Below, piece by piece: positions 35,866 to 64,000 of a DNA stretch of 64,000 nt (position 1 is its first letter; the number at the start of each line of letters is the position of its first letter). Both the position numbers and the translations under genes were made by a program. The notes below the pieces were generated by a model that saw only the letters and a list, made by a program, of their open reading frames with translations, had not been told where the DNA came from and did no database searches. Origin of the DNA: Thermodesulfobacteriota bacterium (GTDB lineage: Bacteria > Desulfobacterota > Desulfarculia > JACQYL01); the NCBI GenBank assembly GCA_963675595.2, contig CAXXLZ010000001.1, positions 416,001 to 480,000 of the forward strand, written 5' to 3'.

Positions 35866-37221
35866 ATGCGCTGTCTCTTTGTTAATCCACAAATCGGCGA
35901 CTTTTTCGAGGGGCTGACTCCCGGGCAGGTGCCCTTGCTCAAAAGGGTGGTGGCCGGCAGCAGAACGTTGCGGGAACGCCTCGAATTCAGCCGCAAAGCC
36001 CTGTCGTCGTTAGGACTCCTCACCGCGGCGACTGTGGGCTCCGGAGTTCGGCCCGGCGTACATTTCGACTTTATCGACGAGAATCTGGATGCGCGGGCGG
36101 TGGAAGACGAGCTCGAGCAGGGAGTGGACCTTCTTGCTCTGGGCGGTACCGTCTATCAGATGAATCGCATCCTGGCCTTGATCCGGGAAGCGGTTAAGCG
36201 GAAGATTCCCGTTGTGGTGGGCGGCGCTGCGGCGATGACCTTCCCGGACCTGTTTATGCGGAAAGGCGTCTCCGTCGTTCTTGGAGAGAGTGAGCCACTT
36301 TTCCCGGAATTCTTGACCGATTGGGAAAAGGGCGCTCCCAAAGGCAGGTACGAGTCGCATTCCAATGCCGGTATGGATCTCAAACACTCTCCCGTGCCGG
36401 ACTTCTCTCTGGCCGAGACGTACGACCACACCTTCGTCGGGATTCAGACGAGCCGGGGCTGTCCCTATCACTGTGAATTCTGTCAAGTCTCCGGGATGCT
36501 TGGAGACACCTACCGACGAAAACCCTTGGAGCGTATCGTGGAAGAAACACGGCGGGTGAAGTCTCTGTGGCCCGATGCGTTCTTTTTCTTCTATGACAAC
36601 AATTTTTTTGCCGACCGTGAGTTCGCGCGCGGTGTCCTTTTAAGTCTATCCCGCGAAGGCGTAAAGCTGGGGCGGTGGGGCACCAACGCCGACGCTTCGG
36701 TGTACGAAGACGGGGAGCTGCTGGATTTGGCGATGAGCCTCGGTCCTCTGGATTATCTGGGTATCGGGTTCGAATCTCTTTCCGGGGACAGCCTGAGCAC
36801 CATAAAGAATCGGAAGAAAGCCGGCCTTCTGAAGAAGTACGATGAGGTTGTAGCGGCCCTTAAGGCCAAAGGTGTGGGCGTTTTCGGATATTTCATGTTC
36901 GGGTTCGAAAACGGCACGGCGGGCGATCTGGAAGCGGCGGTCCAATTTATTCTTCATCACGATATTGACGCCCAAATCAGCCGCCTTGTTCCCATGCCCG
37001 GAACCCGTCTTTATGATCGACTACTGGACGAGGTCCGGGAACGATCCGGTGCGGTGAGCAGAGGGCCTTTAGGACGTTGGAATCAAGTGCGGGAATTGCT
37101 TCTGGAGAAGAGCGGCTTTACTTTGCTCGGCCTTACCGAGTTGCTGGCCGGAGCCTATGAACGGATCTACGACGATTCCAGGCGCGCTTCGGCTCTCCCG
37201 CTGCCTGCTCCCTTTCTTTGA
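35866..37221 (+). CDS. Cobalamin-binding radical SAM protein #1
   Basis: SLGLLT, IDEN, IPVVVGG (B12-binding domain); QTSRGCPYHCEFC; IGFES; YFMFGF. Confidence 0.9.
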   Translation: MRCLFVNPQIGDFFEGLTPGQVPLLKRVVAGSRTLRERLEFSRKALSSLGLLTAATVGSGVRPGVHFDFIDENLDARAVEDELEQGVDLLALGGTVYQMNRILALIREAVKRKIPVVVGGAAAMTFPDLFMRKGVSVVLGESEPLFPEFLTDWEKGAPKGRYESHSNAGMDLKHSPVPDFSLAETYDHTFVGIQTSRGCPYHCEFCQVSGMLGDTYRRKPLERIVEETRRVKSLWPDAFFFFYDNNFFADREFARGVLLSLSREGVKLGRWGTNADASVYEDGELLDLAMSLGPLDYLGIGFESLSGDSLSTIKNRKKAGLLKKYDEVVAALKAKGVGVFGYFMFGFENGTAGDLEAAVQFILHHDIDAQISRLVPMPGTRLYDRLLDEVRERSGAVSRGPLGRWNQVRELLLEKSGFTLLGLTELLAGAYERIYDDSRRASALPLPAPFL

Positions 37222-37257
37222 CGGCGCCGCCGCACTATCCCGTGTTTAGGAGCTGAA

Positions 37258-40200
37258 TTGCATTCGGACGAGGAACATTATCGCCGTTGGAAAGGGGAAT
37301 TGCAAACGGCCGAGGCCGTGGCGGTCGTGGGACTGGCCGCCCGGCTCCCCGGGGCTTCCGATATCCTGCGGTTCTGGAGGAACCTGGAGTCGGCCAGGGA
37401 CTGCATCACGGAAGTGACCCGTTGGAACCACGAATCGCTGTTTTCAACCAACCGGGAAGAGCCGGGAAAGACTTACTGTAAATGGGGGGGCTTCCTCGAC
37501 AGTGTGGACCGTTTCGATTCGGGATTCTTTCAGGTATCCCCGGCCCAGGCCCTCGAAATGGACCCAAGGCAGCGGCTGTTTCTGGAAGTCGCCTGGGAAG
37601 CCATCGAGAACGCGGGCATACCGGCGAGAGACCTCGCCGGCTCAAAGACCGGTGTGTTCGTGGGGGCTTCGAACAATCAGTACCTTCATCTATGGGGAAG
37701 CTCCGGTCTCGGAAGAATGAACGGTCTGGACAATACCGGCGCCGGTATCGCCAATCGCGTGTCCTTCTTCCTGGATTTGCGGGGACCGAGCACCGCGGTG
37801 GACACCACCTGCTCTTCTTCGATGACGGCGGTTCACACAGCCTGCCGGAGCCTGCTTTCGGGCGAATCGGAAACCGCGCTGGCCGGGGGAGTTCATCTGA
37901 ATCTTCTTCCGGAATATTACCTGACCATGAGCCGGATGCGCCTCCTGGCGTCCGAGGGGAAGCACCGGGTACTGGACCGACGGGCCGACGGCTTCATACC
38001 CGGAGAAGGCGTCGCGGTTGTGGTGCTCAAGCCGTTGGACCGGGCAATCCGCGACGGAGATACGATTCATGCGGTCATTCGGGGCTCGGCCGTGAATTAC
38101 TCCGGCAGGACGGGCCATTTGACGGAGCCGTCCCCGGAGGCCGAGAAGGAGGTGGTGGCCGAAGCCTTGGCCCGGTCGGATGTGGACCCGGAAAGCGTCT
38201 CTTATATCGAGCTCAACGGGGCGGGTACGGTCCTGGGCGATTCCGCGGAGGCCAACGCGCTTGGGGAGATATTCGGCGGGAATCGGAGCGGTCCCCTGTT
38301 CCTGGGCTCGGTGAAGAGCGGCATCGGCAACCTCGAGGCCGCCTCCGGCTTGGTGGGAATGATCAAAGTGATCCTGTCCATGCGTTTCCGAACCTTGCCC
38401 GCCATGCTTCATTTCGAGCAACCCAACCGGTTCGTTCGGTGGCGGGAGCTACCTTTTCAGGTGGTTTCGGAAACCGTACCGTGGGATGAGCGTTGTCGTC
38501 CCTTTCGTGCCGGGGTGAGTTCCTTCGGAGTGGGTGGAGCCAACGTACATGTCGTGCTCGAAGAGTGCCCCCGAGACATGGGAAACAAGGGACTCCCGGG
38601 CACCGTTCACCTATCACGGCCGCGTGAGGTTGATGAACGCCCCAGGCTCTTCGTCTGTTCGGCCCGGTCTCGTGAGGCGCTGAAACAGGGGCTGAGCAGA
38701 CTGTACCAAACGGTGGCGGAACGGATAGGCCCCGACGACCTTGGGAATCTGGCCTACACTCTGGCTGCGGGCAGGGAGCATTTCTCCCATCGTTTGGCCT
38801 GGGTCGTCTCCACCGGGGATGAGCTGCTTTCCGCCATGCGCCGATGCATGGAAACGGAAACATGGGAAAGTCTTTCCGAGGAGGAAGGGTGCTTTTACGG
38901 GGTGGCACCGACAACGAATACAAGGCGAAAAAAATCCTTCCCATGGATGGCCGAGGGAAAAAAGGAGGCGGCATCCGCCCGTCGTAACCCTGAGTTCGTA
39001 TTCGCCTTTGCGGCCTTCCGACCCGAGGATACGGCTTCATGGCGGGATGTGGAGTCTTGCGGAGCACCGGCTTGGATCCGCAAGTCCCTCATGGAACGGA
39101 AAGGCAAGGTGAACGCACTCCTGGACCGCTTTTTGTCGTCTGCGCGAGAGCGAGGCTTCACGCTTTCCAGCCAAGTCGCCGATAAGATCGAATGGGTGCT
39201 TCGAGGCATGGCGTTTCAGGAAACCGCAGCGCGCTTTCTATGGGAACTCGGTGTTCGGCCCGTCCGGACCGTGGCGGTCGGGTGGGGGGAATATGCGAAA
39301 CACTGCTTCGAGAATCCCGATGAATTGGAGACGATCTGCTCGGACTTGATGAACCGGGCGTCCTTGGACGAGCCGTTCATGGGAGAGTCCGATCCGCCTT
39401 TTGGTGTTTCCGACCCTGATGTTTTTGTTTTTTCGCCCGCATCGGTGCTTCGAGGCGGCGAGCTGTTGGGTCGGGCCGCCCGAGCCCACGTGCGGGGAGT
39501 GAGCCTCCGGTGGGAGTTGTCGACGGACGACGGTCTCAAACGCAAGTTGGCGTTACCCTCCTATCCTTTCGAGGGGCGGAGGTATTGGCCCGTTCCGGAC
39601 GGTGTCGAGCCGACAGGATCCGAGGCCTTGGAAGTCGGCGTGGAGAGGGAAGCGGCCGAGAACGCCAACCGCGCTTCGACGGATGTGGGGCCGGTTCGCT
39701 CCGAGGACCTTGCAGAGCGGATTAGTTCCGTTTTCATGCACGGCATGGTGGAGAAACTGGGCTTTCGCCCTGAAGAAATCGATGTGGACCGGCCGTTGGA
39801 GGCCTATGGATTCGACTCCATTTTCCTGGTTTCCTGCCTGGAGGAGTTGGAGCGGTCTTTGGGTGTGGTCATCAGCCGTTTCGAGGTCACGGATGCATCG
39901 ACTCTTCGGGGTATCGTGGAATGTTGCGTCTCCGTGGTCCTTCGGAAAAGTCCTGCTTCGGGCACCATTCGCCACACGTTTTCGGTGGGTACCCGCCGAA
40001 CCGATCGGAACGACTCCGAGGAGAGAATCGCAGTGGTGGGGATGGCGGGACGTTTTCCGGGAGCGGACGACCTGGACGAATACTGGGAGAACCTAATTTC
40101 CGCTCGGGAGTCCATTGTGGAGGTTCCACAGGAACGCTTCGACCTGTCTGCGCTCTACGACCCGGATTCCAGAAAGCCGGGGAAGACGGTCTCGAAATGG

Positions 40201-41307
40201 GCGGGGCTCATCCGGGATATCGATTCCTTCGACGCTGCCGGCTTCCACGTGCATCCCAGAGCGCTGCGGAGCATGGACCCGCAACAACGGCTTCTCCTAC
40301 AGGAGGCGAAAAAAGCCCTCACGGACGCCGGGTACGAGCCCGGAAGCGGTCTTCCCAAGCGAGTGGGTGTCTACGTCGGCGTGAGCGCCCATGAATACGC
40401 GTGGCGGCTGCTGCGCGACGGAAAGCCGCTGGATCATTACGCGGGTCTGGGAACGGCCCGATCCATGGCGGCGAACCGGATATCTCATTTCTTCGGTTTT
40501 ACGGGGCCGAGCCTCACCGTGGATACGGCCTGTTCCTCCTCTTTGGCCGCCGTTCACCTGGCGGTGCGGGCTCTGCAAAGAGGGGAATGCGACGTCGCTC
40601 TGGCAGGCGGCGTCAACTTGATTCTGGACCCGTCGGCGTTCTTGATCTTCAGCAAGGCGGGTGTGCTTTCCCCCTCGGGGAGTTGCAGGGTATTCGACGA
40701 CGGTGGGGACGGGTACGTGCGCGGAGAAGCGGCGGGCGTGGTGGTACTTGAAACTCTGGATCGGGCCTTGCGTAATGAGGACGGAATCCGAGGAGTGGTG
40801 CTGGGCTCGGCGCTCAATCATAACGGCGAAAACTTCAGCATCACCGCGCCGAGTCTCCGCGGGCAAATTGCTCTGCTGGAGGAGGTCTACGGAGGCACGG
40901 GCGTCGATCCGGGTTCGATTTCCTACGTGGAGGCCGGAAGCACGGGGAGCAGGGAAGGCGATCCTTTGGAGACGAGGGCTCTCCTCTTCGTGCTGGATGG
41001 GTCGTCGTCTCCCGTGTCGTGCGCCTTGGGGTCCGTCAAACCCAATATCGGACACGCCGAGGCGGCATCGGGTATCGCAGGGTTGCTCAAAGTACTGCTT
41101 GCCCTGCAACGAAAAACCATTCCGCCTTTAGTGATCCATTCGGCCATGAACCGGGCGATCGATCTTTCGGCTTCGCGATTGTTCATTCCGCATGGGCCTC
41201 TCGGGTGGCCCGTGGGCGAACTCCCGAGACGTGCCGCCGTCACTTCCTTCGGGTACGGGGGAGCCAACGCGCATTTGGTAGTGGAAGAGGCGCCGTCGGC
41301 CGACTGA
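37258..41307 (+). CDS. AT-less type I PKS-like protein KS-(AT remnant)-ACP-KS; both KS non-canonical
   Basis: KS1 DTTCSS / ELNGAGT / GIGNLE; LPSYPFEGRRYW linker; ACP GFDSIF (Ser 39817); KS2 DTACSS / EAGSTGS / NIGHAE; no GHSxG AT motif; TTG start with AGGAG SD. Confidence 0.92.
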   Translation: MHSDEEHYRRWKGELQTAEAVAVVGLAARLPGASDILRFWRNLESARDCITEVTRWNHESLFSTNREEPGKTYCKWGGFLDSVDRFDSGFFQVSPAQALEMDPRQRLFLEVAWEAIENAGIPARDLAGSKTGVFVGASNNQYLHLWGSSGLGRMNGLDNTGAGIANRVSFFLDLRGPSTAVDTTCSSSMTAVHTACRSLLSGESETALAGGVHLNLLPEYYLTMSRMRLLASEGKHRVLDRRADGFIPGEGVAVVVLKPLDRAIRDGDTIHAVIRGSAVNYSGRTGHLTEPSPEAEKEVVAEALARSDVDPESVSYIELNGAGTVLGDSAEANALGEIFGGNRSGPLFLGSVKSGIGNLEAASGLVGMIKVILSMRFRTLPAMLHFEQPNRFVRWRELPFQVVSETVPWDERCRPFRAGVSSFGVGGANVHVVLEECPRDMGNKGLPGTVHLSRPREVDERPRLFVCSARSREALKQGLSRLYQTVAERIGPDDLGNLAYTLAAGREHFSHRLAWVVSTGDELLSAMRRCMETETWESLSEEEGCFYGVAPTTNTRRKKSFPWMAEGKKEAASARRNPEFVFAFAAFRPEDTASWRDVESCGAPAWIRKSLMERKGKVNALLDRFLSSARERGFTLSSQVADKIEWVLRGMAFQETAARFLWELGVRPVRTVAVGWGEYAKHCFENPDELETICSDLMNRASLDEPFMGESDPPFGVSDPDVFVFSPASVLRGGELLGRAARAHVRGVSLRWELSTDDGLKRKLALPSYPFEGRRYWPVPDGVEPTGSEALEVGVEREAAENANRASTDVGPVRSEDLAERISSVFMHGMVEKLGFRPEEIDVDRPLEAYGFDSIFLVSCLEELERSLGVVISRFEVTDASTLRGIVECCVSVVLRKSPASGTIRHTFSVGTRRTDRNDSEERIAVVGMAGRFPGADDLDEYWENLISARESIVEVPQERFDLSALYDPDSRKPGKTVSKWAGLIRDIDSFDAAGFHVHPRALRSMDPQQRLLLQEAKKALTDAGYEPGSGLPKRVGVYVGVSAHEYAWRLLRDGKPLDHYAGLGTARSMAANRISHFFGFTGPSLTVDTACSSSLAAVHLAVRALQRGECDVALAGGVNLILDPSAFLIFSKAGVLSPSGSCRVFDDGGDGYVRGEAAGVVVLETLDRALRNEDGIRGVVLGSALNHNGENFSITAPSLRGQIALLEEVYGGTGVDPGSISYVEAGSTGSREGDPLETRALLFVLDGSSSPVSCALGSVKPNIGHAEAASGIAGLLKVLLALQRKTIPPLVIHSAMNRAIDLSASRLFIPHGPLGWPVGELPRRAAVTSFGYGGANAHLVVEEAPSAD

Positions 41308-41397
41308 ATGTGAGTCGCGCTTCCGCGGATCGAGGTGTTTCCCATGGACCGCAGCGGAAAAGCATCTCTGCGACTTTGAGGCAAAACGGAGTCCTGT

Positions 41398-42729
41398 TTG
41401 GTTGTTTTGCTGGTGAATCCCAACCGGGTTAAGCCTCTAGTCCCTCCGTTGGGACTGGAATACTTGTCCGATGCGCTGCGCCTTGCCGGGCACGAAGTGC
41501 TTTTCTTCGATCTGGGATTCCGGCCTCCCGCGTCTTTGTTCGAGCTGGTTCGGCGGAAGAAGCCTGACATCATCGGGGTTTCCATCCGAAACCTGGACGA
41601 CGTCACCCTGCTTCGGAAGCACAACTACGTGCCCGGCATCGTCCGTCTGGTGAGGGAACTCCAACGTGTCTCGGATGCCCGGATCGTTCTGGGGGGGGCC
41701 GGCTTCTCGATTCTACCCCGAGAGCTCATGGAAGTCACGGGTGCGGATTTCGGGATTGCCGGTGATGGGGAAGAAGCCATGGTGGGGCTTCTGAACGATC
41801 TCGGTCAACCGCAACATATTCCCCGGGTTTGGTTCCGGGAGGGTGGTCCTTCGGGGCCGGTCCGTTTTTCTTTCGAGGGGCTTTCCGGGTCCTGGGGAGC
41901 CGGTTGCTCGCCACGTTCACTGCTGGACTACGCAGGATATCTGCGTCGAGGGAGTTCGTGCAACGTTCAGACCAAACGAGGTTGCACTCACCGTTGTCTA
42001 TACTGTCCAGAGCCGCGTGTTATGGGACGGATGATGCGGCTGCGCCCCGCGGAAGCGGTTGCGGAGGAGTTCGAAATCCTCGCTTCCATGGGCGTCCGGG
42101 AGCGGGTCTTTTTGGTGGACTCGGAATTTAATCTTGTTGAGGAACATGCCCTGGAAGTCTGTCGGATTCTGACGGAAAGGGCCTCCGGGGTGAAATGGGT
42201 ATGTTCCATGACCCCGAAATACGTGACGGAAGAACTCATCGGCTTGATGAAACGGGCGGGTTGTGACATGGTGATTTGGAGCGTGGACTCCGTATCCGAT
42301 GCAACACTGCAATCCCTGAGAAAAGACGTAGAGGAGACGGATGTTTTTCGAGTGTGCGGCTGGTGCGAAAAGGCGGGCTTGCCTTATTGTCTGGCACTGC
42401 TGCTTGGCGGACCGGCGGAAACGCCGGACACATTGAAGGCAACCTTTCGGAACGCCGGGAAGACTCGGGCGGCGTTTATCGCCGTGGGTGTCGGCTTGAG
42501 AATCTATCCAGGTACCGGTTTGCACGAAGTGGCCTTGGCGGAGGGCCAAGTGACCCGAGAAACGGATTTCCTGCAGCCTGTGTACTATCGAGAAGCTTGG
42601 GTGCGCGACACGTTGATTCCTCTGGTTCGAACGCAGATCGCAGAGGAGAGAAGGGCGGTGATGTTCGGCTCTCGACCGGACGTGACGGTCGAGGCGGAGA
42701 TTCGGAAGGTTTATCCCGTGCCCTTTTGA
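41398..42729 (+). CDS. Cobalamin-binding radical SAM protein #2 (lipid-biosynthesis/TsrM-like N-terminus)
   Basis: LLVNPN..KPLVPPLGLEYL, IGVSIRNLDD, LGGAGFS, QTKRGCTHRCLYCPEP, VDSEFN, GLRIYPGT. Confidence 0.9.
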   Translation: MVVLLVNPNRVKPLVPPLGLEYLSDALRLAGHEVLFFDLGFRPPASLFELVRRKKPDIIGVSIRNLDDVTLLRKHNYVPGIVRLVRELQRVSDARIVLGGAGFSILPRELMEVTGADFGIAGDGEEAMVGLLNDLGQPQHIPRVWFREGGPSGPVRFSFEGLSGSWGAGCSPRSLLDYAGYLRRGSSCNVQTKRGCTHRCLYCPEPRVMGRMMRLRPAEAVAEEFEILASMGVRERVFLVDSEFNLVEEHALEVCRILTERASGVKWVCSMTPKYVTEELIGLMKRAGCDMVIWSVDSVSDATLQSLRKDVEETDVFRVCGWCEKAGLPYCLALLLGGPAETPDTLKATFRNAGKTRAAFIAVGVGLRIYPGTGLHEVALAEGQVTRETDFLQPVYYREAWVRDTLIPLVRTQIAEERRAVMFGSRPDVTVEAEIRKVYPVPF

Positions 42730-42821
42730 ACATGGTGTCGAACCGACCTGAAACAGTCCCCACCAGTAGATCCGAAGTATCCGACCGGACTGCCGACGGC
42801 CTCATCTGAACGGATTCAATC

Positions 42822-53383: not shown

Positions 53384-53394
53384 CGGCGAGGTCC

Positions 53395-54447: not shown

Positions 54448-54451
54448 TCGC

Positions 54452-55594
54452 ATGGACCTCGAACCGAAACAATCCGAGCAGGACCGAATCCGGGAAATCC
54501 GGCGGATCTGCGGGGAATATCTGGAACCCCTTGCATCGGCCATGGACCGCTCGGCTGATTTCCCTTTGGAAACCCTGAAGCTTCTGGGTGAATTCGGCTT
54601 CTTGGGTCTTCAGGTTCCGGAGGAATACAAAGGCTGCTTCTCAGGGGATGCGTATTATTACTCGGTCATCGAAGCCATGGCCGAAACGAGTCCGGCGCAT
54701 GCGCTCACCGTGATTTCTCATTCCTTGTGCTGTCGCTTGATCAGGGACTTCGGCACGGATTCCCAGAAAGCGGCCTATCTGTCCGGCCTGGCCACGGGCC
54801 GGATCATGGGCGCCGTATGCATGACCGAAGCGGGAGCGGGATCGGATTTGAACTCCATACGAACTCGGGCGGTAAAGCGAAAGAACCGCTACGTGATTGA
54901 TGGGCGAAAGCTCTTTATCACCAACGGCGGTTTCGCGGACGTCTTCGTGGTCCTGGCGTCTACGTCGGATCAAGACGGGCCCTTTACCAAGAGTCTGTTT
55001 ATTGTTCCTAAAACGTCCAAGGGTATCCGTTCGGGGAAAAAAGAGATGAAGCTGGGCTTCCGGGGAGCGGATACTCGAGAAGTGATTCTGGACGGAGTGG
55101 ACGTGCGGTCGGACCTTCTGCTGGGCCGGGAAGGAAACGGATTGATCCAGATGGCGCGTGCCATGGAAGGATCGCGATTGGCCGTGGCGGCCATGGCCTT
55201 GGGACTTGCGGAACGGTCTCGGCGGCTGGCGCTGAAAAGCGTTCGATTCCAGGAAAAAGACGGGACTTCCGAGGCGGTGCTGGAGGGTCATCGAATGCTG
55301 TTGGCGGAGACGGCCACGGAGATCATGTGCGTGCGTTTGCTGATCAAAAGGGCCGCGGAAGTCCAGGCGGAAGGAAAACCCGTCACGGACCTGGCGGCCA
55401 TGGCCAAATGGTTTTCCGCCGAAACGGCGATGCGGGCCGCATCGAATACGCTCCAAATCTTGGCGATGACGGAGGACCGCCACCACCGGGAAGCGGAGCG
55501 GCTCTTTCGGGACGCCAAGTTGTGCGGCATCATCGAAGGCACCACGGAAATCCAGAAAAAGATCGTGGCCCGCTTCGCATTTACGGGTGATTGA
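54452..55594 (+). CDS. Acyl-CoA/acyl-ACP dehydrogenase family protein
   Basis: CMTEAGAGSD, GRKLFITNG, KLGFRG, RDAK..IIEGTTEIQK. Confidence 0.9.
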   Translation: MDLEPKQSEQDRIREIRRICGEYLEPLASAMDRSADFPLETLKLLGEFGFLGLQVPEEYKGCFSGDAYYYSVIEAMAETSPAHALTVISHSLCCRLIRDFGTDSQKAAYLSGLATGRIMGAVCMTEAGAGSDLNSIRTRAVKRKNRYVIDGRKLFITNGGFADVFVVLASTSDQDGPFTKSLFIVPKTSKGIRSGKKEMKLGFRGADTREVILDGVDVRSDLLLGREGNGLIQMARAMEGSRLAVAAMALGLAERSRRLALKSVRFQEKDGTSEAVLEGHRMLLAETATEIMCVRLLIKRAAEVQAEGKPVTDLAAMAKWFSAETAMRAASNTLQILAMTEDRHHREAERLFRDAKLCGIIEGTTEIQKKIVARFAFTGD

Positions 55595-55731
55595 TCGCGG
55601 CGCACATTGCAGTAACGAGGGACACGGCGCGAAGCATCGCATCGTGTTAACCGACGGCCCACCAATAGGTGGCCGGCCCTTGACGAACACCGGAGGCGCG
55701 TACGGCTGCGAATAAGGACGGGAACGACTCG

Positions 55732-57300
55732 TTGCATTCAACGGTCTCCTTCTTGGAGGACGCCGCCGAGGAATATTCGGGAAAGACCGCATTGATGGGA
55801 GCCGGTCGAAAGACCACCTATGCGGAGTTGCGGGCCGGCGCCCGCCGGTTTTCGGAGGCTCTTCAAAGCGGGGGGGTGAAGCCCGGGGCCAGAGTCGTGC
55901 TGAGCTTCACCCGTGAAACGGAATTCGTCCAAGCCTATTGGGGAGCCCTTCTGGCTTCGGCGATTCCCGTGTTGGTGAGCGCGGCGATGCCTCCCTCCAA
56001 GCTGGAATACGTGATCAACGACTCGGGCGCGGCAGCCTTCGTTGGTGCCGAGGCCGCGTTCAAGGCACTGCCCGAGCCTCCCTCGTCGCTGAAGACCGCT
56101 TTGCTGATTTGTGGAGGCGCGGGTGGGCCGGAGAGAGGCTTCCAAATCGAGATTCCGAACAGCGGCGTGAATGTGCATCGGCCGGACGGGGGGGCCCCGG
56201 AATCTCCCGGTGAACGGGAAGGGATTCCGGGATTCACCTGTATTTACACTTCGGGAACCACGGGCCGACCCAAGGGGGTCATGCTTTCGGCAACCAACAT
56301 CCGGTACGGAACCCGCATGATCCGGGAGTTCTTGGCCCTCGGTCCGGAAGACCGGAGCCTTCCGGCCATGCCGTTCACCCATTGTGCCGGACTGCTCCAC
56401 CTCCTCGCCCTTCTCGAGACGGGGGGGGCGGTGGTCACGGGATTTGCACCGGCATTGCCCGGTTCTTTCCTCAACGCCGTGAGGGATTTGAAGGTGACCG
56501 TCCTGCCGGTGGTTCCGGCGATGATGACCTTGCTTCTCAGCCGTTACGGAAGAGACCTGCCGGAGCGGTGTCGATCCCTCAGGGTGATGGAGTTCTCCAG
56601 CGCTCCGTTGGCGCCGTCCCTGGTGCGGGAGGTTCGCGGACTGCTTCCGCAGGTTGATCTGTTCAATACTTACGGCCTCACCGAGGCACCCAGAATCACC
56701 TACGCCCGCCTCGAAAGCGAAGAGGGCGACGAGGACCATGTGGGACGGGTGAATCCGGAGCTGACCGTGTTCATCGACCGATCCGCAAACCCTTCCGACA
56801 AGGTGGGGGAGGTTTGCGCGCAAGGGCCCAATGTGGCCGAGGGCGGCTATTGGAACGGTTCCGCGGGCGGTGACGCGCGGTTTTCTTCCAACGGGTTCCG
56901 CACCGGTGACTTAGGTTGGCTGGATGAGGAGAACCGGTTGCATCTCGCCGGGAGATCCGACGATCTGTTCAAGGTGGGAGGAGAAAACGTCTATCCGGAG
57001 GAGATCGAACGGGTCATTTCGTCAATGAAGGGGATATCGGACGCACGGATCGATGCGGTCGAAGACCCCTTGCTCGGCACGCGCATCGTTGCACGCGTGG
57101 TCGGATGTTCCCCCGAAGTGACCGCGAAAGCCGTTTCCGCGTATTGCCTGCGTCATCTCGAACGCTTCAAGGTCCCTTCCCGGATCGATTTTGTCGAAGA
57201 AATTCCACGGACGGAGTCGGGCAAGCACTCCCGGTCCCGGTCTCGTGTTGACTCGGACCCCTGCAGGTTCGGCGGATCCAACGGGAACGGGTCGGCCTAG
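55732..57300 (+). CDS. Class I adenylate-forming enzyme (acyl/aminoacyl-AMP ligase) #1
   Basis: IYTSGTTGRPKG, TYGLTE, FRTGDLG, GENVYPEEIE, PRTESGK. Confidence 0.92.
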   Translation: MHSTVSFLEDAAEEYSGKTALMGAGRKTTYAELRAGARRFSEALQSGGVKPGARVVLSFTRETEFVQAYWGALLASAIPVLVSAAMPPSKLEYVINDSGAAAFVGAEAAFKALPEPPSSLKTALLICGGAGGPERGFQIEIPNSGVNVHRPDGGAPESPGEREGIPGFTCIYTSGTTGRPKGVMLSATNIRYGTRMIREFLALGPEDRSLPAMPFTHCAGLLHLLALLETGGAVVTGFAPALPGSFLNAVRDLKVTVLPVVPAMMTLLLSRYGRDLPERCRSLRVMEFSSAPLAPSLVREVRGLLPQVDLFNTYGLTEAPRITYARLESEEGDEDHVGRVNPELTVFIDRSANPSDKVGEVCAQGPNVAEGGYWNGSAGGDARFSSNGFRTGDLGWLDEENRLHLAGRSDDLFKVGGENVYPEEIERVISSMKGISDARIDAVEDPLLGTRIVARVVGCSPEVTAKAVSAYCLRHLERFKVPSRIDFVEEIPRTESGKHSRSRSRVDSDPCRFGGSNGNGSA

Positions 57301-57302
57301 GC

Positions 57303-58247
57303 ATGGTCGTCGATTTCCACGTTCATTTATTCGACCACGACTGGCTCCCTCGTCGTTGGTGGAAGGCCATGGAGGACTTTCACGAGCGGAGAGGCCCGAT
57401 CAAAGGCCTGGGCAAACCTTTCGATATGGGAGAATACTGCGATCCCTCGGGCGAACGTTTAGTCCGGGAGATGGATGAGGCAGGCATCGACCACAGCGTG
57501 GTGTTTCCTTTGGACGTGGGTCTACTGCTGGGAGAGCCCCCGGTTTCCATACGGAAGCAGAACGAACTCCTCGCGGATGTGGCCCGCAGGTATCCTTCAA
57601 GGATTACGGCCTTTTTCGGAGTGGATCCACGAAGACCAGGGGCCGTTGAATGGATCGAAGCCGGCATCCGAGAGTGGGGCATGGGAGGCGTGAAATTTCA
57701 TCCGGGCTCGGGGTTTCACCTAAGTCGGGAGGAGTTCTTTCCCGTGCTGGAACGAATCGCCGATCTCGGGGTCCCTTTGGTAACGCATACCGGACCCGCT
57801 TTCGGACCTCTGGACGGCAGCGGCTGCGATCCCATGGAACTCGACAAGGCTTTGGGACGCATTCCCGGGCTCAAGATCGTGGCCGCCCATCTGGGCGGTG
57901 GACGGGTGGACGAGCTGTGCTGGTTGGGCGCCATGAAGGAAAGTCTTTATGCGGACATCTCCCTCCGGCAGCTCGAATGTCGCCGGAACCCCGAGGCGTT
58001 CGCTGAGACATTGAGAAAGGCCCTGGATTTCATGGGGCCCGACCGGATTCTATTCGGTACGGACTGGCCGTTTTCCCGAAAGGCGATGGCGGCGGGAGCG
58101 TATGTTCGAGCTCTTCGGGAGTTTTCCCGCGGCTCGTCGGCCGTTCTGCTCTCCGGTGAAATCAAACGATTGCTGGGGGGTAACGCCCTCCGGCTTCTGG
58201 GAAAAAAAGGAGAGGCTCTTCAGCGTGGATATCGAGTCGACACGTGA
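57303..58247 (+). CDS. Amidohydrolase_2 family metal-dependent hydrolase
   Basis: DFHVH, KFHP, HTG, AAHLG, FGTDWP, GGNA. Confidence 0.88.
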   Translation: MVVDFHVHLFDHDWLPRRWWKAMEDFHERRGPIKGLGKPFDMGEYCDPSGERLVREMDEAGIDHSVVFPLDVGLLLGEPPVSIRKQNELLADVARRYPSRITAFFGVDPRRPGAVEWIEAGIREWGMGGVKFHPGSGFHLSREEFFPVLERIADLGVPLVTHTGPAFGPLDGSGCDPMELDKALGRIPGLKIVAAHLGGGRVDELCWLGAMKESLYADISLRQLECRRNPEAFAETLRKALDFMGPDRILFGTDWPFSRKAMAAGAYVRALREFSRGSSAVLLSGEIKRLLGGNALRLLGKKGEALQRGYRVDT

Positions 58248-58482
58248 ATCGGTTTATAGGTTTATACGGGATGAAATGAACCATGGAGAGGAGTTTCCTC
58301 TGGAGACCGACCTGATTCAACAGGGGCTGATCGACTCCATGGGCGTGATGAAACTTATCGGCTTCCTTGAAACGACCTTCGGCATCCAGATCGAATTGGA
58401 CCGGGTAAGCGCGGAGCATTTTCAGTCCGTGGGGGCCGTGGCGGATCTGGTGGCCTCATGCGAGAAGGGCGAGACTGCGTGA
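58225..58482 (+). CDS. Stand-alone carrier protein (DltC/aminoacyl-ACP-like)
   Basis: LIQQGLIDSMGVMKLIGFLETTFGI; GTG start at 58225 after AAGGAGAGG. Confidence 0.85.
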   Translation: MDIESTRESVYRFIRDEMNHGEEFPLETDLIQQGLIDSMGVMKLIGFLETTFGIQIELDRVSAEHFQSVGAVADLVASCEKGETA

Positions 58483-58751
58483 TGATGGAAAGAGAAGGGG
58501 TCCTTGCCCTGATCGAAGAGTTTATCAGGGATACGTGCAACATCCCGGCAGACACTCCCGGATTCACCAGATCGTGCGATCTTTTTGAGGAAGGGTTCGT
58601 GGATTCCATGGCCCTGGTGAGGCTCGTCGCTTTCCTGGAATCCGAATTCGATGTTGAAATCGAAGAAGAGAATTTATTCGACGAGCGCTTCCTGACCATC
58701 GAAGGACAGGGAGACTTGGTCCTGGAACTGAAGAATTCAGTGGGGCGGTAA
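58482..58751 (+). CDS. Stand-alone carrier protein (DltC/aminoacyl-ACP-like), second copy
   Basis: LFEEGFVDSMALVRLVAFLESEFDV; start overlaps upstream stop. Confidence 0.87.
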   Translation: MMEREGVLALIEEFIRDTCNIPADTPGFTRSCDLFEEGFVDSMALVRLVAFLESEFDVEIEEENLFDERFLTIEGQGDLVLELKNSVGR

Positions 58752-59073
58752 GGCGAGGACGGAAGAACGTCCGAGCCTGTCATGAGTTCGCTGCACCCCC
58801 GATAGGATGCGCGTTTGGGTCGTCCTTGGACGCTTCCATGAGCCTCGTCCTCGATTTGGAGCCTCGGTCCCGTGAGGGCGGGCCATAGTCCCCGTCCTGC
58901 GCGCAAGAACACACAGATACCGAGAGTCCCCTTAGGATACGGCGGAGTTGGGAGAACAGTCACGATTCCGGCGTCCGATTCTTTCCTGATGGATGTTTCA
59001 AATGTATTATTCCCCGACCACTCCGTGGACGCGCACCTGAAAGGGTTCATGGCAAGCTGTGGTGAGGTCATCC

Positions 59074-62067
59074 ATGTCGGCTGACATGAGTCACCGGGAC
59101 ATTGCCGTCATCGGCATGGCGTTTCGTTTGCCCGGAGGAGACGATCCGGAGGTTTTCCGGGATCGGCTTCTTGCGTCGGAAGACTGCCTGGGAACGTGGC
59201 CGGATTCCATCCGCAGCGGTGCGCGGGGTCCCGTGAGGCCTGCCGGAATCATCCAAGGAGTCGACCTGTTCGACGCTGCGTATTTTGGAATCGCTCCTCG
59301 CGAAGCCGCCTTGACGGATCCAAGGCGGCGTTTGGTTCTCGAGATGTCCGCCACCGCGCTGGAGACCTGCGGCTATGGAGGAGATCGTCTTCGAGGTTCC
59401 GACACCGGGGTGTTCCTCGGCGTGAGCAACAATGGAGACTACGGCACCGGGGGCGCCGCCGGGGGCTTGGGAGCACTCAACGTATCGGACGCCATGATCG
59501 CTCACGAGGTGTCCCGATTCTTTGATTTCACGGGACCCAGCCAGGTGGTGGACACCCTCTGTTCTTCGGCCTTGGCGGCGGTGCACCAAGCCTGTTGCGC
59601 CTTGCGGGAAGGTCGTTGCTCAACGGCTCTGGCCGGAGGCGTCAGCCTGCTTCTTTCGGTGAGTCATTTCGAAGCCCTGGAAGGCATGGGACTGCTGTCG
59701 CGATCCGGAAAATGTCGAACCTTCGACGTGGATGCCGACGGATTCGTCCTGGGAGAAGGCGTGGGCGTGTTTCTCCTGAAGTCTTTGAAAGCCGCACTTC
59801 GAGACGGGGACCCGCTTTGGGGCGTGATCAAAGGCGGTGCCGTGGCTTTCAACGGGCGTGGAGAACACCCCTTGGCCCTGCGTGCCGAAGCGGTGGAGCG
59901 AGTGGTGACGCGGGCCATGAGGGACGCGGGGACCGCTCCGGCCGCCATCTCCTTTATCGAAACCGCCGGAACCGGGACCCCCATGGGAGACGCCGCCGAG
60001 GTTCGAGGGCTGCGTTCGGCCTTTGGTTCCGCGGTCGGTAAGGCACCTTTCTGTGGATTGGGAGCCGTGAAGACCCGTGTGGGCAACCTCGAAGCGGCCT
60101 CGGGGATTGCCGCACTGGTAAAGACTTTGTTGATGATGCGGGGGAAATTCATTGCGGCGAACCTGAACTTCCATCGTGTGAATCCGCTTATCCGGCTCAA
60201 AGGATCGCCCTTCCGTCTCTGCAACGAGCTCGACGAATGGACGACGGCCAACCGGGCGCCCAGGAGGGCGGGAGTTTCCGCTTTGGGCATAGGAGGAGCT
60301 CATTACCACCTGATCCTGGAGGAGCCGCCTTCGGAAGGGTTTACCCTGGGACCGAGTCGACCGCGAACATCCGAGCCGCTCTTGCTGTGCCTTTCGGCCG
60401 GGAGCCTTTTCCAACTCAGAGAGCTTTGCCGCAGGTACCGGCGCAGGCTCGAGGATCTTTCGGAATGCACGCCCGAGGAGCTTTGTCACACCCACAACAC
60501 CGGAAGCGGAGATCTGCCGGTTCGGCTGGCCTTGACCGCCCGAGACGGGGAGGAACTTATTGGCCTTCTGAAGCGGGGCGAGTTCGACGACCCCGTGCCC
60601 CGACACGGTTTGGAGGGCATGTTCTTCCACGACGGTTACGCTGGGGATATCCGAAGGAAACGGAACCCCCTCAAAGATCTTCGTTCTCCGAGCGGTGAGG
60701 GCGGGCGGGCCGATCCCGAACGCCTTGCCGGACGAACCGGACTGATTCAGGGTGATTTGGTGTCGTGCGAACATCCCGAGACTGCACTCCAATCCATCGG
60801 CGTTTCGCTCGGTGAATGGGGGGTCAGGGTGGGCCCTTCGATAAGCGCTGCGGCCGGCGACACGCAGCCCGACGCCGAGGCGATGGTGCCGGACCGCCTG
60901 CGCGAATGCGTCTCCCGAGGTATTCGCACTTTTGTAACCATGGGGCTGTCGGACGATTTTCGCAACCGGATTTCGGAAGAGGTGCCGGAAGCGTTTCTGA
61001 TTCCGTGGCCCGGCTCGGGCGCCGATCTTATGGAGCGCAGGCGTCTCGCGGCCGCACTTTACGCACATGGCGCCCGTCTCGATTTCGAAATGCTTCAGGG
61101 GAGCGGCAACCTTCGCAAAGCGATGTTGCCGCCGTACCCTTTTGCCCGGAAATCTTTTTGGAGAACGGCTCCCGATGATGGGCTGCATAAGGCTTCGCCG
61201 GCCGGGACTTGTGCTGCGGAGAGGATTTCACCTGAAGACCTCGCCGGGATGCCCCCATCGGAGTTGAAGGAACGGGTGGAGGGCTTTCTGAGGGAGGCGG
61301 CCTGCGAAAGCGCGGGCTTGGATTGCGGGAAAGAAGAGATCGTGCTCTTCTCGGATTGGTGCTTGGACTCACTGGCGCGCGTTCAACTCGCCCGTCGGGT
61401 CGAGTCTCGGTTCGGAGTCCGCATTGACCTTCAGGCGTTTCTGCGGCATGACCACGTGGCTCTGCTGGCCGAATACGTGGTGGGCCGGATTCGGTATGGG
61501 AGCGTGGAAAAGCCCGTGGAGCCCCGAGAGGATGATCATCGGGCTCGGGTCATCCTGGAGACGGCTTCCGCCGCTCATTGGGAGGCGGTGCGTGCCTGGC
61601 TGAACGACGAGGGAGTCAACCAGTGGCTGGATCCGTTTTTCCAGGAAGGATTCGGCGCTCGAGAATACGCCTACTTCCTGAAACAACGGGATCGGAATAC
61701 CTGGGTCATCGTGGAGGACGGAATTCCGGTGGGAATCTGCGGGCTGGTCCAGGTGGACCTGCGCAACCTCGGCGCGGAAACCTGGATCGTGGTGGGCGAC
61801 CTCTCGGCGCGTCTCAGGGGTGCGGCCGTTGCCGCGGGCGAAGCTTTGTGTGGAAAGGCGTTTCTTGAATTGGGCCTAAGAACCTTGAACGCCAAGGTGA
61901 GATGGGACAATGTTCCCGCCTTGGAAATGACGGAGTACTCGGGTTGGAGGCGGGTGGGCACCCTTAGAAACTCCCTGAAGGTGGGAGATGCCTTCCACGA
62001 CAGGGAGCTTTTCGAACTGACCCGTGAGGATTTCGAGGACCGGCGGAATCGAGGCGAAACTCCATGA
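59074..62067 (+). CDS. AT-less PKS-like protein KS-(AT remnant)-ACP-GNAT; KS non-canonical
   Basis: KS DTLCSS / ETAGTGT / RVGNLE; LPPYPFARKSFW; ACP CLDSLA (Ser 61369); C-terminal RimJ/RimL-like GNAT (AFLELGLRTL.A.V..DN..A...GW..VG.LR). Confidence 0.9.
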   Translation: MSADMSHRDIAVIGMAFRLPGGDDPEVFRDRLLASEDCLGTWPDSIRSGARGPVRPAGIIQGVDLFDAAYFGIAPREAALTDPRRRLVLEMSATALETCGYGGDRLRGSDTGVFLGVSNNGDYGTGGAAGGLGALNVSDAMIAHEVSRFFDFTGPSQVVDTLCSSALAAVHQACCALREGRCSTALAGGVSLLLSVSHFEALEGMGLLSRSGKCRTFDVDADGFVLGEGVGVFLLKSLKAALRDGDPLWGVIKGGAVAFNGRGEHPLALRAEAVERVVTRAMRDAGTAPAAISFIETAGTGTPMGDAAEVRGLRSAFGSAVGKAPFCGLGAVKTRVGNLEAASGIAALVKTLLMMRGKFIAANLNFHRVNPLIRLKGSPFRLCNELDEWTTANRAPRRAGVSALGIGGAHYHLILEEPPSEGFTLGPSRPRTSEPLLLCLSAGSLFQLRELCRRYRRRLEDLSECTPEELCHTHNTGSGDLPVRLALTARDGEELIGLLKRGEFDDPVPRHGLEGMFFHDGYAGDIRRKRNPLKDLRSPSGEGGRADPERLAGRTGLIQGDLVSCEHPETALQSIGVSLGEWGVRVGPSISAAAGDTQPDAEAMVPDRLRECVSRGIRTFVTMGLSDDFRNRISEEVPEAFLIPWPGSGADLMERRRLAAALYAHGARLDFEMLQGSGNLRKAMLPPYPFARKSFWRTAPDDGLHKASPAGTCAAERISPEDLAGMPPSELKERVEGFLREAACESAGLDCGKEEIVLFSDWCLDSLARVQLARRVESRFGVRIDLQAFLRHDHVALLAEYVVGRIRYGSVEKPVEPREDDHRARVILETASAAHWEAVRAWLNDEGVNQWLDPFFQEGFGAREYAYFLKQRDRNTWVIVEDGIPVGICGLVQVDLRNLGAETWIVVGDLSARLRGAAVAAGEALCGKAFLELGLRTLNAKVRWDNVPALEMTEYSGWRRVGTLRNSLKVGDAFHDRELFELTREDFEDRRNRGETP

Positions 62068-63623
62068 ATACCTTGCCGGAGTGCATTCGAGCGGCCGCAG
62101 CAGCGGGCGACAAAGAAGCCCTCGTGTTCGGAAAGGAACGGCTTACTTACGGCGATCTCGATAGGCGTTCGAGCCGTTTGGCCGGACTGCTCCGGCGGGC
62201 CGGGGTGCGCAAAGGAGACCGGGTCGGCCTCGTAATGCCCAATTGCGTGGAGAGTGTCGTTGCATTCACGGCGATCCTCAAGATGGGGGCCGTGGAAGTG
62301 GGATTCCATCTCGAGACATCGGTGGAAACCCTGGCGCGGGCGTTCCGCGAGGTGGACGCATCTCTGGTGATTTGCGCGCGCACGCCGGTCTCCAAGATGA
62401 AAGACCTGATCAGAGCCTTACCCTCCCTCAACTGGGTCATCGACGGCATCCCTCCCGATGTGGGAACAAGCGAGGGAGCATTCATCGACCTGGCGGAGGC
62501 CGAGAGGGAGCACGATGATTTTGATTTCGGCCTGGACGATCCTTCCACTCCCCTTGTCCAGTTTACGTCGGGATCCACGGGAGAGCCCAGGGGCGTCGTG
62601 TTGACCCAGGCCGGGTTTCTCGCCGCGTCGCGGGCCAGGAATGAATTCCTGCATCTGGACCGGGACGACCGGATTCTCGATATTCTCAAACTCTCCCATT
62701 CCTGCGGCAAGTCCCTGCTTTTCGACGCCTTTTACCTGGGGGCCTGTCTCGTGCTGGGTAAAGGACTCGTCCCTCCCTCCGCGTTCATCAAAACGGTGGT
62801 GGGTGAGAAGGTGAGTCTGATTACCGGCCCGCCCTACCTGTTCGAAGTGCTCCTGAAGATTCGCAACGATGTTCGGGTCATGGAAGCGCTGAAGAATTCG
62901 CTGAGATTCCTGGAGGTGGGCATGGCGCATCCATCCGTGAGGCTGCTCAAGGATTTGAGGAGCGTGTTTCCCTGGACGTCTCTGGTGAATCGTTATGGGC
63001 TCACGGAAAATGCCGGTGCGGCTTCTCTCCAGGTTCACGCGTCCGAAGACGGAGACAGGTTTGGGACCATGGGACGCGGCTGTTCCGTCATGCAATTGGA
63101 TCTGGTGGACGAATCCACCGGTCTGCCCTCGGATTCCAACGCGGGCACGATCCGATTGCGAGGCGAGGCTCTCATGCTGGGCTACTGGGACGAATGGAGC
63201 GCGGGACGCAGGACGGATTACGCTGTTTCCGGTTTCGTTACCGGAGACCGGGCCGAAAGGGACTCGGAAGGGTTTTTCTATTTCAAAGGACGCGGCGACC
63301 ATCTGTTGAAAGTGTGCGGGGAACGGATCGCTCCCGAAGAAATCGAGGAAGCGGTCTGCGCACTCCCCGGAATTGCCGAGGTCACGGTTTTCGGTGTGGA
63401 AGACGACTTGACGGGTGACCGAATTGTCTGCCTTTACCGTGCGGCCGGGGAGGTAGCGCCTGAATCGGTCAAGGCTCACTGCGCCCGATCGTTGCCTTCC
63501 TACAAAGTCCCCGCCGTGGTTCTTGTTTCCAGCGAACCCATCCCCCGCACCGCCACCGGAAAGATATCCAGGCGGCTGGCCCGGGAAGCCTACCTGTCCG
63601 GCGGGTATACCGGAGAGGAATGA
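62064..63623 (+). CDS. Class I adenylate-forming enzyme #2
   Basis: QFTSGSTGEPRG, RYGLTE, FVTGD, GERIAPEEIE, PRTATGK; ATGA-coupled to the PKS-like gene. Confidence 0.92.
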   Translation: MNTLPECIRAAAAAGDKEALVFGKERLTYGDLDRRSSRLAGLLRRAGVRKGDRVGLVMPNCVESVVAFTAILKMGAVEVGFHLETSVETLARAFREVDASLVICARTPVSKMKDLIRALPSLNWVIDGIPPDVGTSEGAFIDLAEAEREHDDFDFGLDDPSTPLVQFTSGSTGEPRGVVLTQAGFLAASRARNEFLHLDRDDRILDILKLSHSCGKSLLFDAFYLGACLVLGKGLVPPSAFIKTVVGEKVSLITGPPYLFEVLLKIRNDVRVMEALKNSLRFLEVGMAHPSVRLLKDLRSVFPWTSLVNRYGLTENAGAASLQVHASEDGDRFGTMGRGCSVMQLDLVDESTGLPSDSNAGTIRLRGEALMLGYWDEWSAGRRTDYAVSGFVTGDRAERDSEGFFYFKGRGDHLLKVCGERIAPEEIEEAVCALPGIAEVTVFGVEDDLTGDRIVCLYRAAGEVAPESVKAHCARSLPSYKVPAVVLVSSEPIPRTATGKISRRLAREAYLSGGYTGEE

Positions 63624-63675
63624 AATACTTCCCGCGGCGTATGGGCAAAAAGGGAGTGGTCGATTGAAACGAGGT

Positions 63676-64000
63676 ATGGAAACGGCCCGTCGTTTCTTCC
63701 GTAGCTTCGGCGAGGAACTGGTCATCGGAGGCGTTCCGGCTTCCGAAATCGCGGACATGGCCGGCACCCCGTGTTATGTCTATGATTTGGATCTGATGCG
63801 GCGGAATCTGGAAGGATTGCGGGAAGGATTGGACCCCGCCGTCGAGATTTTCTATTCCGTCAAAGCCAATCCGGCTTTGGCTTTGTGCCGGGAATTCGCG
63901 AAACTCGGCCTGGGGGCCGAAGTGGCCTCGCTTGGAGAACTGGAAACGGCGCTGGAGGCGGGATTCTCTCCGGATCGTATCGTGTTCGCAGGTCCGGGAA
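63676..64000 (+). CDS. PLP-dependent type III decarboxylase (LysA/BtrK-like); partial, runs off the window and is not in the ORF track
   Basis: Manual translation from ATG 63676 (GAGG SD): ...GTPCYVYD...IFYSVKANP...GAEVASLGEL...IVFAGPG. Confidence 0.85.
   Translation, partial: METARRFFRSFGEELVIGGVPASEIADMAGTPCYVYDLDLMRRNLEGLREGLDPAVEIFYSVKANPALALCREFAKLGLGAEVASLGELETALEAGFSPDRIVFAGPG

Follow-up and report, generated by a model that had tools for sequence, protein, structure and literature searches.

The 64,000-nucleotide stretch analysed here (the window; G000:C1:416001-480000) belongs to a host genome of 6.79 Mb which is 98% complete, and from position 35866 onwards it carries a cluster of carrier protein-dependent biosynthetic genes that is real, conserved and uncharacterised. 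The whole cluster comprises 22 genes (g01 to g22) on the plus strand within 29.4 kb, 21 of which lie in the window. We consider the chances about even that it encodes a non-canonical carrier-based pathway by which an anaerobic sulfate reducer would make a polymethylated N-acyl thioamide with no lengthening of a polyketide chain. This proposal, which is based on sequence comparison, rests among other things on the ketosynthase (KS) domains of g02 and g19, the PP-loop enzyme g12 and the B12 enzymes g03 to g05. Domain searches agree with the parts listed in a preliminary description of the same DNA: 21 co-oriented genes in the window, among them five B12-radical S-adenosylmethionine (SAM) proteins, two polyketide synthase (PKS)-like proteins without acyltransferase (AT), five acyl carrier protein (ACP) domains, a phosphopantetheinyl transferase, an O-methyltransferase, an acyl-CoA/ACP dehydrogenase (ACAD), two AMP-forming ligases, an amidohydrolase, a fold-III pyridoxal phosphate (PLP) decarboxylase, a PP-loop ATPase and two GNATs.

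Ketosynthase domains and carrier proteins

The PKS-like protein g02 (37258..41307) is organised as KS, linker, ACP (Ser854) and KS, and g19 (59059..62067) as KS, linker, ACP (Ser771) and a C-terminal GNAT domain. No Pfam AT domain was found in the cluster proteins, and the single AT-family match of the genome lies on another contig. The His of the HGTGT motif is required for malonyl decarboxylation. None of the three KS domains has the Cys-His-His triad of elongating KSs, while the Cys is kept in all of them: the sites of the Cys, the first and the second His read C/N/N in KS1 of g02 (Cys185, ELNGAGT, GNLE), C/G/H in KS2 of g02 (Cys1092, EAGSTGS, GHAE) and C/A/N in KS3 of g19 (Cys168, ETAGTGT, GNLE). 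In comparison with solved KSs, KS1 has ELNGAGT for EAHGTGT and GNLE for GHxE, i.e. Asn at both His sites. The signature of KS0 domains (Cys kept, HGTGT His lost) is present in all three domains as well as in the orthologue of g19 in the metagenomic locus L083. Because three out of three KSs lack the HGTGT His and there is no AT, these domains look like acyl relays (KS0) and not like chain builders; very probably they are non-elongating. Ordinary chain extension by the PKS-like proteins is therefore not supported. KS0 domains swap substrates between ACPs, as stated in the accessible part of PMC7619045.

As a control we used 150 PKS proteins, the best 150 of the g19 representative search (149 multimodular PKSs and one near-copy), in which a pattern search identified 323 KS domains. 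Among these domains 318 are His/His and none has the Asn/Asn pair, but the pattern passes over strongly diverged KS0 domains, so the set is biased and overstates how rare KS0 domains are. The losses could also mean that the His-less KSs perform other chemistry, such as a non-decarboxylative Claisen reaction of two carrier-bound acyls, a cyclisation or the formation of C-N bonds, with KS1 as the candidate. In favour of this one can name the Cys of all three domains, the Asn/Asn pair unseen in the control and the several carriers, which could give two acyl partners. However, KS3 has Ala and Asn at the two sites where its L083 orthologue has Asn and His. The loss of the first His is common to both and the replacing residue varies, which suggests relaxed constraint and not a new conserved active site, and we regard this alternative as very improbable. 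Judged by a motif, the linker of g02 may contain the remnant of a dead AT.

In total there are six carrier domains, two within the PKS-like proteins and four on separate genes. The small carriers g17 (58228..58482, Ser37), found by translating the gap between the neighbouring genes, and g18 (58482..58751, Ser42) are adjacent, and g22 (65004-65276), 50% identical to g18, lies wholly outside the window. Positions above 64000 continue the window numbering along G000:C1. The fourth, g06 (45990..46397), is a 135-aa "long" ACP with a GIES motif (Ser42) and a conserved C-terminal extension, whose PDB matches mostly cover the canonical ACP part. For an identification of g06 as amxACP the accessible part of PMC10139942 gave no support. 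The sole paralogue of g06 in the genome, a second long-ACP gene with 32% identity over 88 aa, is found in G000:C2:3379887-3386024 (L208) next to two FabF-like, one FabZ-like and two FabG-like genes and an ABC transporter, labels that were read from sequence. The ACP and FabZ-like open reading frames (ORFs) of L208 have no match in Pfam. L208, an uncharacterised type II locus, could feed the cluster or run parallel to it.

The PP-loop enzyme g12

The protein encoded by g12 (52430..53383) is a PP-loop enzyme of the AANH type and likely to be an Fe-S thioamide synthetase. Its ATP-binding motif SGGKDS with D39 and S40 is invariant in 32 aligned sequences, and D39/S40/C116/C119/C246 correspond to D77/S78/C154/C157/C284 of CtaC with a constant offset of 38, the three Cys being the Fe-S cysteines of CtaC; CtaC residues at these positions were mutated in the accessible part of PMC6772006. 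A 355-aa AANH protein carrying D77, C154, C157 and C284 is encoded in the locus L203, where the neighbouring chorismate-lyase, aminotransferase, ATP-grasp, carrier, decarboxylase, C39-like, ligase and transglutaminase genes represent the cta set (compared with the gene set in the accessible part of PMC7183216). With this CtaC-numbered protein g12 shares 27% identity over 271 aa (E 5e-32), including LCFFCGR and SGC. In an unrooted maximum likelihood tree of AANH proteins, for which 230 rows were extracted and thinned at 62% identity to 108, both fall into one clade of 32 of the 108 rows with a support of 100/97. Carrier genes accompany 11 of the 15 loci examined for this CtaC clade but none of the 14 examined for the WbuX-type clade, in a comparison in which locus lengths differ and the carrier profile was built from the CtaC clade itself.

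Within the same line of biosynthesis g12 could instead insert nitrogen, giving an amidine, a lactam or an amide and not a thioamide. WbuX (TIGR03573) is its sole NCBIfam match at E<=1e-8, some of its homologues are annotated as asparagine synthase, and the best Foldseek match of the g12 model is the WbuX-type N-acetyl-sugar amidotransferase 8wex (TM 0.54-0.59), followed by TtuA and AsnB. Nevertheless the score of g12 is 53 bits where the WbuX family requires 203, and HisH/HisF partners are lacking, whereas two of two tested members of the WbuX-type clade pass the TIGR03573 cut-off and have HisH/HisF next door. Furthermore, the CtaC-numbered protein of L203 matches the same family (124 bits), and the tree puts g12 with CtaC and apart from the WbuX-type clade. 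Nitrogen insertion therefore appears quite improbable to us.

For the thioamide synthetase itself several observations have to be set on the other side of the balance. These include the Foldseek ranking just given and the absence of CtaC from the listed structural matches of the g12 model. The three-Cys pattern also occurs in WbuX-type proteins, with other spacings, and the N-terminal Zn finger of CtaC is absent in both g12 and its L083 orthologue. In the tree g12 belongs to a sister subclade of CtaC, about 3 substitutions per site apart, the rows having been gathered by similarity to g12 and the group delimited beforehand in a previous tree built from them. When the ORFs of L203 were compared with the 22 cluster proteins (BLASTP, E<=1e-3) only the CtaC-, F-, H- and I-like genes matched, and the cluster lacks counterparts of CtaA, B, D, G and J. 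An acyl-amide product, as suggested in the preliminary description, passes over g12 as a CtaC-clade candidate for thioamide synthesis; in the pathway proposed below the amide would be converted further.

AANH proteins nearer to g12 than CtaC (37-39% identity to g12, same subclade) are encoded in L204 (G073:C1:1204001-1224000), L205 and L206, which are nonribosomal peptide synthetase (NRPS) or free-carrier clusters; L204 also has a set of FkbH-, ACAD- and dehydrogenase-like genes (labels read from sequence). A recurring actinomycete locus (L027, L038, L040, L044, L045, L050, L061, L071, L074) combines a three-Cys AANH protein with AMP-forming ligases and in some cases an ACAD, and its AANH proteins fall outside the CtaC clade. 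In the accessible part of PMC6772006 closthioamide is described as the sole bacterial thioamide-containing nonribosomal peptide, and the legend of Fig. 3 there mentions CtaC clusters containing radical SAM proteins.

B12 enzymes, the Hgd-type pair and further tailoring genes

The motif CxxxCxxC is present in each of the five B12-binding/radical SAM proteins, which belong to three types (g03; g04/g05; g01/g09); the B12-binding domain of g01 (27.6 bits) stays under the Pfam cut-off of 32.1. We predict with good confidence that g03, g04 and g05 are methyltransferases. The closest solved structure for g03 (41398..42729), an enzyme of the TsrM/BzaD/ladderane type, is TsrM (E 7e-40), and its Arg64 and Glu243 align to Arg69 and Glu273 of TsrM. 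In TsrM the Arg lies under the cobalt and the Glu at the unique iron, where a Glu is common among radical SAM enzymes (PMC8992657, accessible part). g03 is a probable sp2 C-methyltransferase that may methylate without radicals. The radical chemistry formerly expected of the B12 enzymes has thus to be qualified for g03, one of the five, as it carries the TsrM signature of non-radical methyl transfer. The best family of g03 is that of the ladderane-cluster B12-radical SAM proteins, TIGR04072 (298 bits, cut-off 360), and it also stays below the cut-offs of TIGR04428 and TIGR04385. In contrast to the surroundings of TsrM, BzaD and the ladderane enzymes, its neighbourhood has no thiopeptide, cobamide or ladderane (amxFabZ, FabF, desaturase) genes; for the ladderane clusters the gene content given in the accessible parts of PMC13459092 and PMC2649909 was compared. 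With a sub-cutoff g03 and no type II genes (FabZ, FabF, desaturase-like), the cluster does not have the make-up of a ladderane lipid cluster. Elsewhere in the genome, which also encodes DsrA, a B12-radical SAM gene over the TIGR04072 cut-off (401 bits; G000:C2:2958644-2962412, L209) adjoins a FabF-like gene, a chain-length-factor-like gene and an ACP.

The closest counterparts of the paralogues g04 (42822..44351) and g05 (44348..45892; 35% identity) are CysS and TokK (profile E 4e-35 and 1e-32). Trp68 of g04 aligns to Trp76 of TokK and is invariant in 17 aligned sequences including g05. The substrate on which CysS forms branched alkoxy groups is a methoxy-aryl acid bound to a carrier, and the O-methyltransferase of the cluster could supply a methoxy substrate of this kind. 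A lower-axial Trp under the cobalt is described for the CysS/TokK type in the accessible part of bioRxiv 2025.11.17.688841. g04 is a probable sp3 C-methyltransferase, possibly an iterative one. With the KedN5 family g04 and g05 reach 104-107 bits, far under the cut-off of 700; CysS is about 130 residues longer, and unlike the cystobactamid (CysS) and asparenomycin (TokK) systems the cluster has no NRPS or carbapenem genes. A lone paralogue of g04/g05 (35%) was seen at G000:C2:3225915-3227360 with no carrier genes nearby. For g01 (35866..37221) and g09 (49358..50725), which are 40% identical, only distant relatives were found, and their type is unplaced; L083 has three copies of the g09 type.

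As stated in the preliminary description there is a pair of HGD-D proteins, g07 (46663..47793) being a HadC/BzdN-like beta and g08 (47956..49296) a HadB/BzdO-like alpha subunit. The cluster cysteines C106, C139 and C390 of g08 align with HadB. At the site of Glu55 of HadB, which we take to be the conserved active-site glutamate, g08 and its L083 orthologue have Gln (Gln76 in g08), whereas six of six other aligned paralogues of the host genome have Glu. Dehydratases and aryl-CoA reductases have Glu at this site; the matching Glu65 of BzdO is the proposed proton donor according to the accessible part of PMC11971306, although our own alignment with BzdO begins just after the site. No ATP-dependent activator (BcrAD/HgdC) is encoded in the cluster, and ten BcrAD-family matches lie elsewhere in the genome. 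The exchange of Glu for Gln, together with the missing activator, indicates that the pair is not a canonical dehydratase, and the earlier assignment is not supported in the form given. With HadBC and BzdNO the cluster thus shares the two subunits and the three cysteines, but it differs in the conserved Glu and in having no activator, CoA-transferase or catabolic genes nearby. g07/g08 probably act on a carrier-bound substrate.

The remaining tailoring genes are those for an Sfp/EntD-type phosphopantetheinyl transferase (g10, 50718..51422), a probable tandem GNAT acyltransferase (g11, 51427..52416), a SAM-dependent O-methyltransferase (g13, 53380..54447; Methyltransf_2 with dimerisation domain), the ACAD g14 (54452..55594) and the Amidohydro_2 protein g16 (57303..58247), whose nearest solved structures are LigW/ACMSD-type decarboxylases (weak, E 5e-10). 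The two GNATs are g11 and the C-terminal domain of g19. g11 has no Pfam match of its own and was recognised with ESM Atlas (0.96) and by a sub-cutoff Pfam match of its orthologue; an AlphaFold model built with two sequences (pLDDT 41) was set aside.

Asp is typical of amino-acid adenylation domains. The stand-alone AMP-forming acid:carrier ligases g15 (55732..57300) and g20 (62064..63623) have His at this site, like the CtaI-like aryl-acid ligase, while the ligase of a smaller related unit (L086) has Asp. The best family of both is long-chain fatty acid-CoA ligase. The fold-III PLP decarboxylase g21 (63676..64980, crossing the window edge at 64000) has kept its PLP Lys and shares 34% identity with the CtaF-like protein in L203. 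Two further product classes were considered and rejected. For a pyrrole of the prodigiosin/clorobiocin kind ACAD, ligase, carrier, O-methyltransferase and KS-KS protein are all present, but the scores for RedW (185 of the required 650 bits) and PigA (154 of 500) and the ligases without the amino-acid Asp speak against it; for methoxymalonyl-ACP there is no FkbH and no 3-hydroxyacyl dehydrogenase.

The preliminary description had also proposed a lipid. Such a product, which we keep as a rival but not as the best reading, would be a specialised lipid or fatty-acyl amide, with a type II fatty acyl on the long ACP that the B12 enzymes methylate or cyclise as proposed for ladderanes and that, destined for the membrane or the cell surface, receives a head group in the form of an amide or thioamide. 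The best families of g03, g15 and g20 fit this, as do the position of the only paralogue of the long ACP in a FabF/FabZ/FabG-like type II locus and the lack of an exporter or resistance gene in the cluster. On the other hand g03 stays under a cut-off which another host gene passes, the 22 genes include no FabF, FabZ, FabG, desaturase or glycerol-phosphate acyltransferase, and the presence of an O-methyltransferase and a CysS-like pair speaks for methoxy or branched alkoxy chemistry. In addition a search of 94 other genomes of the class did not detect the long ACP, contrary to what is expected of a core lipid pathway. We consider a lipid unlikely.

Recurrence, proposed pathway and comparison with known systems

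That the cluster continues past the window edge, as had been predicted, is correct, but extension of the contig added only about 1.3 kb, in which g21 and g22 are followed by a converging minus-strand gene. Start/stop overlaps between cluster genes occur at 44348-44351, 50718-50725, 53380-53383, 58482 and 62064-62067, and the widest intergenic gaps measure 307 and 265 bp. A scan of 35200-50800 for promoters and terminators was uninformative (7 and 16 sites versus shuffled means of 4.1 and 19.5), and Rfam gave no match in the window or in the locus past its edge (L001). The ORF at 46431-46673 was rejected as a gene, since it belongs to no family and is broken by a 1-nt insertion in a contig of 97% identity. 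The GC content of the cluster is 58.4% in comparison to 56.3 +/- 1.5% in 160 equal windows of contig C2, and 9% of these windows exceed its tetranucleotide distance; these figures are at most a weak sign of foreign origin. DsrA, CbiD and the BcrAD-family matches of the host genome are all over the family cut-offs. DsrA and CbiD indicate that the host is a sulfide-making, B12-making anaerobe, in agreement with the earlier view of an anaerobe's carrier-protein pathway with multiple B12 enzymes.

Upstream, a CobA/BtuR-like corrinoid adenosyltransferase gene (34674-35246, minus strand; under NCBIfam cut-offs) is transcribed away from the cluster, and downstream of it lies a gene for a 343-aa protein (33609-34640, minus strand) with no Pfam or NCBIfam match that looks GalT/HIT-like by eye. 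Past the window edge a PEMT/ICMT-family membrane methyltransferase gene (L001:3254-3904, minus strand) converges on the cluster end, and 3 kb beyond it follows a MacAB-like exporter (L001:6432-10707, plus strand; HlyD, ABC ATPase, two permeases).

The metagenomic loci L083 and L085, which come from one organism (99.65% identity over 16,285 bp), contain orthologues of the 13 genes g07 to g19 in the same order with 39-59% identity, which bears out the expected co-occurrence in other genomes. Between the orthologues of g08 and g09 they have three more B12-radical SAM genes, the first type represented being that of g04/g05 (one gene) and the second that of g09 (two genes). More than seven cluster proteins were matched in only these two of 160 fetched loci. 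L086 represents the smaller unit, with B12-radical SAM, AANH, ACP, AMP-forming ligase, PLP decarboxylase and GNAT genes, in order from AANH on. In protein searches 34 of 45 matches of g12 reach at least 36% (named sources Aminicenantes, Spirochaetales and Clostridia), 16 of the 17 matches of the long ACP are non-self with 47-69%, and among 140 matches of g04 there are 14 near-full-length ones with 48-61%; one homologue of g04 is named as coming from a Desulfobacterales metagenome-assembled genome. Contigs of the same size (54857, 36350, 190240, 8179, 23145, 79380) recur across the homologue lists, which suggests that g12, the long ACP and g04 may be co-located there.

Within the genomes searched the picture is different, several of these searches being without a positive control: no orthologue of g08 in 40 relatives (best 30%), no hit of the long-ACP profile in the 94 other genomes of the class or in other groups of 8, 1, 7 and 96 genomes, none of the g04 profile in 21 genomes, none for g11 in 400 genomes of the phylum, and for g12 no strong match in 400 genomes of the phylum, with 35 weak ones (E >= 1e-23). 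Judged by these occurrences the cluster appears conserved but patchy, like a secondary-metabolite locus. In our searches of the open-access literature we found no paper on this gene combination; subscription journals and MIBiG were outside the scope.

A sequencing run of another study contains a contig that covers 40181-55600 with 478 differences (about 97% identity), a second one over 35701-39119 and a more diverged one that joins short pieces of g04, g06 and g08. The first of these contigs bears on the question whether a once-active cluster is partly decayed or silent in this strain. Decay could account for g14, which has lost the FAD-binding motifs RxQFG and HGGxG kept in L083, for the second His of KS3, also kept in L083, and for the sub-cutoff B12 domain of g01. 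Yet all 22 reading frames are open, every carrier Ser, KS Cys, radical SAM motif, PLP Lys and AANH residue is intact, the motif loss in g14 is not due to a frameshift, and the indels listed for the 97% contig are one in-frame insertion in g02 and three intergenic ones. Decay or silence thus seems to us a slight possibility, even less probable than the other alternatives.

For an active thioamide pathway we propose five steps, in which the substrates and their order are what we infer from the observed domain inventory and residue losses; the step order and the identities of acid and amine are much less sure than the assignments of the KS0 domains, g12 and g03 to g05. First, g15 would load an acid from host metabolism onto carrier g17 or g18. 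This acid is slightly more likely to be aromatic or alicyclic than fatty, in view of the O-methyltransferase, the TsrM- and CysS-like enzymes and the Bcr-like pair, and the acyl branch would also take in g13, g14 and g16. Second, the KS0 domains of g02 would pass the acyl group between carriers and onto the long ACP g06, on which g01, g03 to g05, g09 and g13 would methylate it and g07/g08 would perform a one-electron reductive step with the help of a borrowed ATP-dependent activator. In parallel, as the third step, g20, g22 and g21 would provide the amine unit, a carrier-bound group of the beta-alanine or gamma-aminobutyric acid type or a diamine. Fourth, the KS0-ACP-GNAT protein g19 would accept the finished acyl group, and its GNAT together with g11 would form the amide, as CtaG does in closthioamide. 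Finally g12 would adenylate the amide oxygen and swap in sulfur at a [4Fe-4S] site, with host sulfide as the source.

Some features do not fit easily into this scheme. Among the 22 cluster genes there is no aromatic-acid synthase, activator, releasing thioesterase, transporter or resistance gene; neither ligase has the amino-acid Asp, although g21 would have to be supplied with an amino acid; and the FAD motifs missing from g14 have to be counted here as well. A bolder version, which we put forward tentatively and regard as rather doubtful, is that a PKS-derived line has been turned entirely into a conveyor, in which three KS0 domains would move one acyl group over six carriers for five B12 enzymes and a Glu-to-Gln Hgd-fold enzyme with a new ketyl reaction on the carrier-bound group, followed by amide formation on the KS0-ACP-GNAT protein and conversion to the thioamide. 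If true, sulfate reducers would possess an assembly logic of a new kind and a class of thioamide natural products.

The number of secondary metabolites known to come from obligate anaerobes is small. Annotation tools would misname g02 and g19 as polyketide synthases. The cluster offers testable enzymes: a CtaC relative without Zn finger, a KS0-ACP-GNAT module for amide formation, a TsrM-type methylase which possibly acts on a carrier, and an Hgd-fold protein without its general acid/base. As the family recurs in uncultured anaerobes with different copy numbers of radical SAM genes, a series of congeners can be predicted.

Comparison with the closthioamide system (PMC6772006, PMC7183216, accessible parts) reveals as common features the anaerobic host, free carriers, an Fe-S AANH protein of the CtaC clade, a fold-III PLP decarboxylase (CtaF-like, 34%), an AMP-forming ligase (CtaI-like, 22-27%) and the lack of NRPS condensation domains. 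In contrast to closthioamide the cluster has no ATP-grasp CtaD, papain-like CtaG, transglutaminase CtaJ, chorismate lyase or aminotransferase, and its AANH protein has no Zn finger, while three KS0 domains, two GNATs, five B12 enzymes, the Hgd/Bcr-like pair, O-methyltransferase, ACAD, amidohydrolase and long ACP are additional. With the KS0 modules of trans-AT PKSs (e.g. MmpE of mupirocin; PMC7619045, accessible part) it shares AT-less KS-ACP units in which the Cys is kept and the acyl group is carried between carriers for tailoring. There, however, KS0 modules are a minority within an elongating line, whereas here three of three KSs are of this kind, and a trans-AT, ketoreductase, dehydratase and thioesterase are missing. 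The cluster would join closthioamide-type chemistry to five B12 enzymes of three types and to megasynthase-like proteins whose KSs all look non-elongating. As far as can be judged from its genes, it would work like the non-canonical thiotemplate of closthioamide combined with trans-AT KS0 modules, and yet it appears to be a member of neither pathway.

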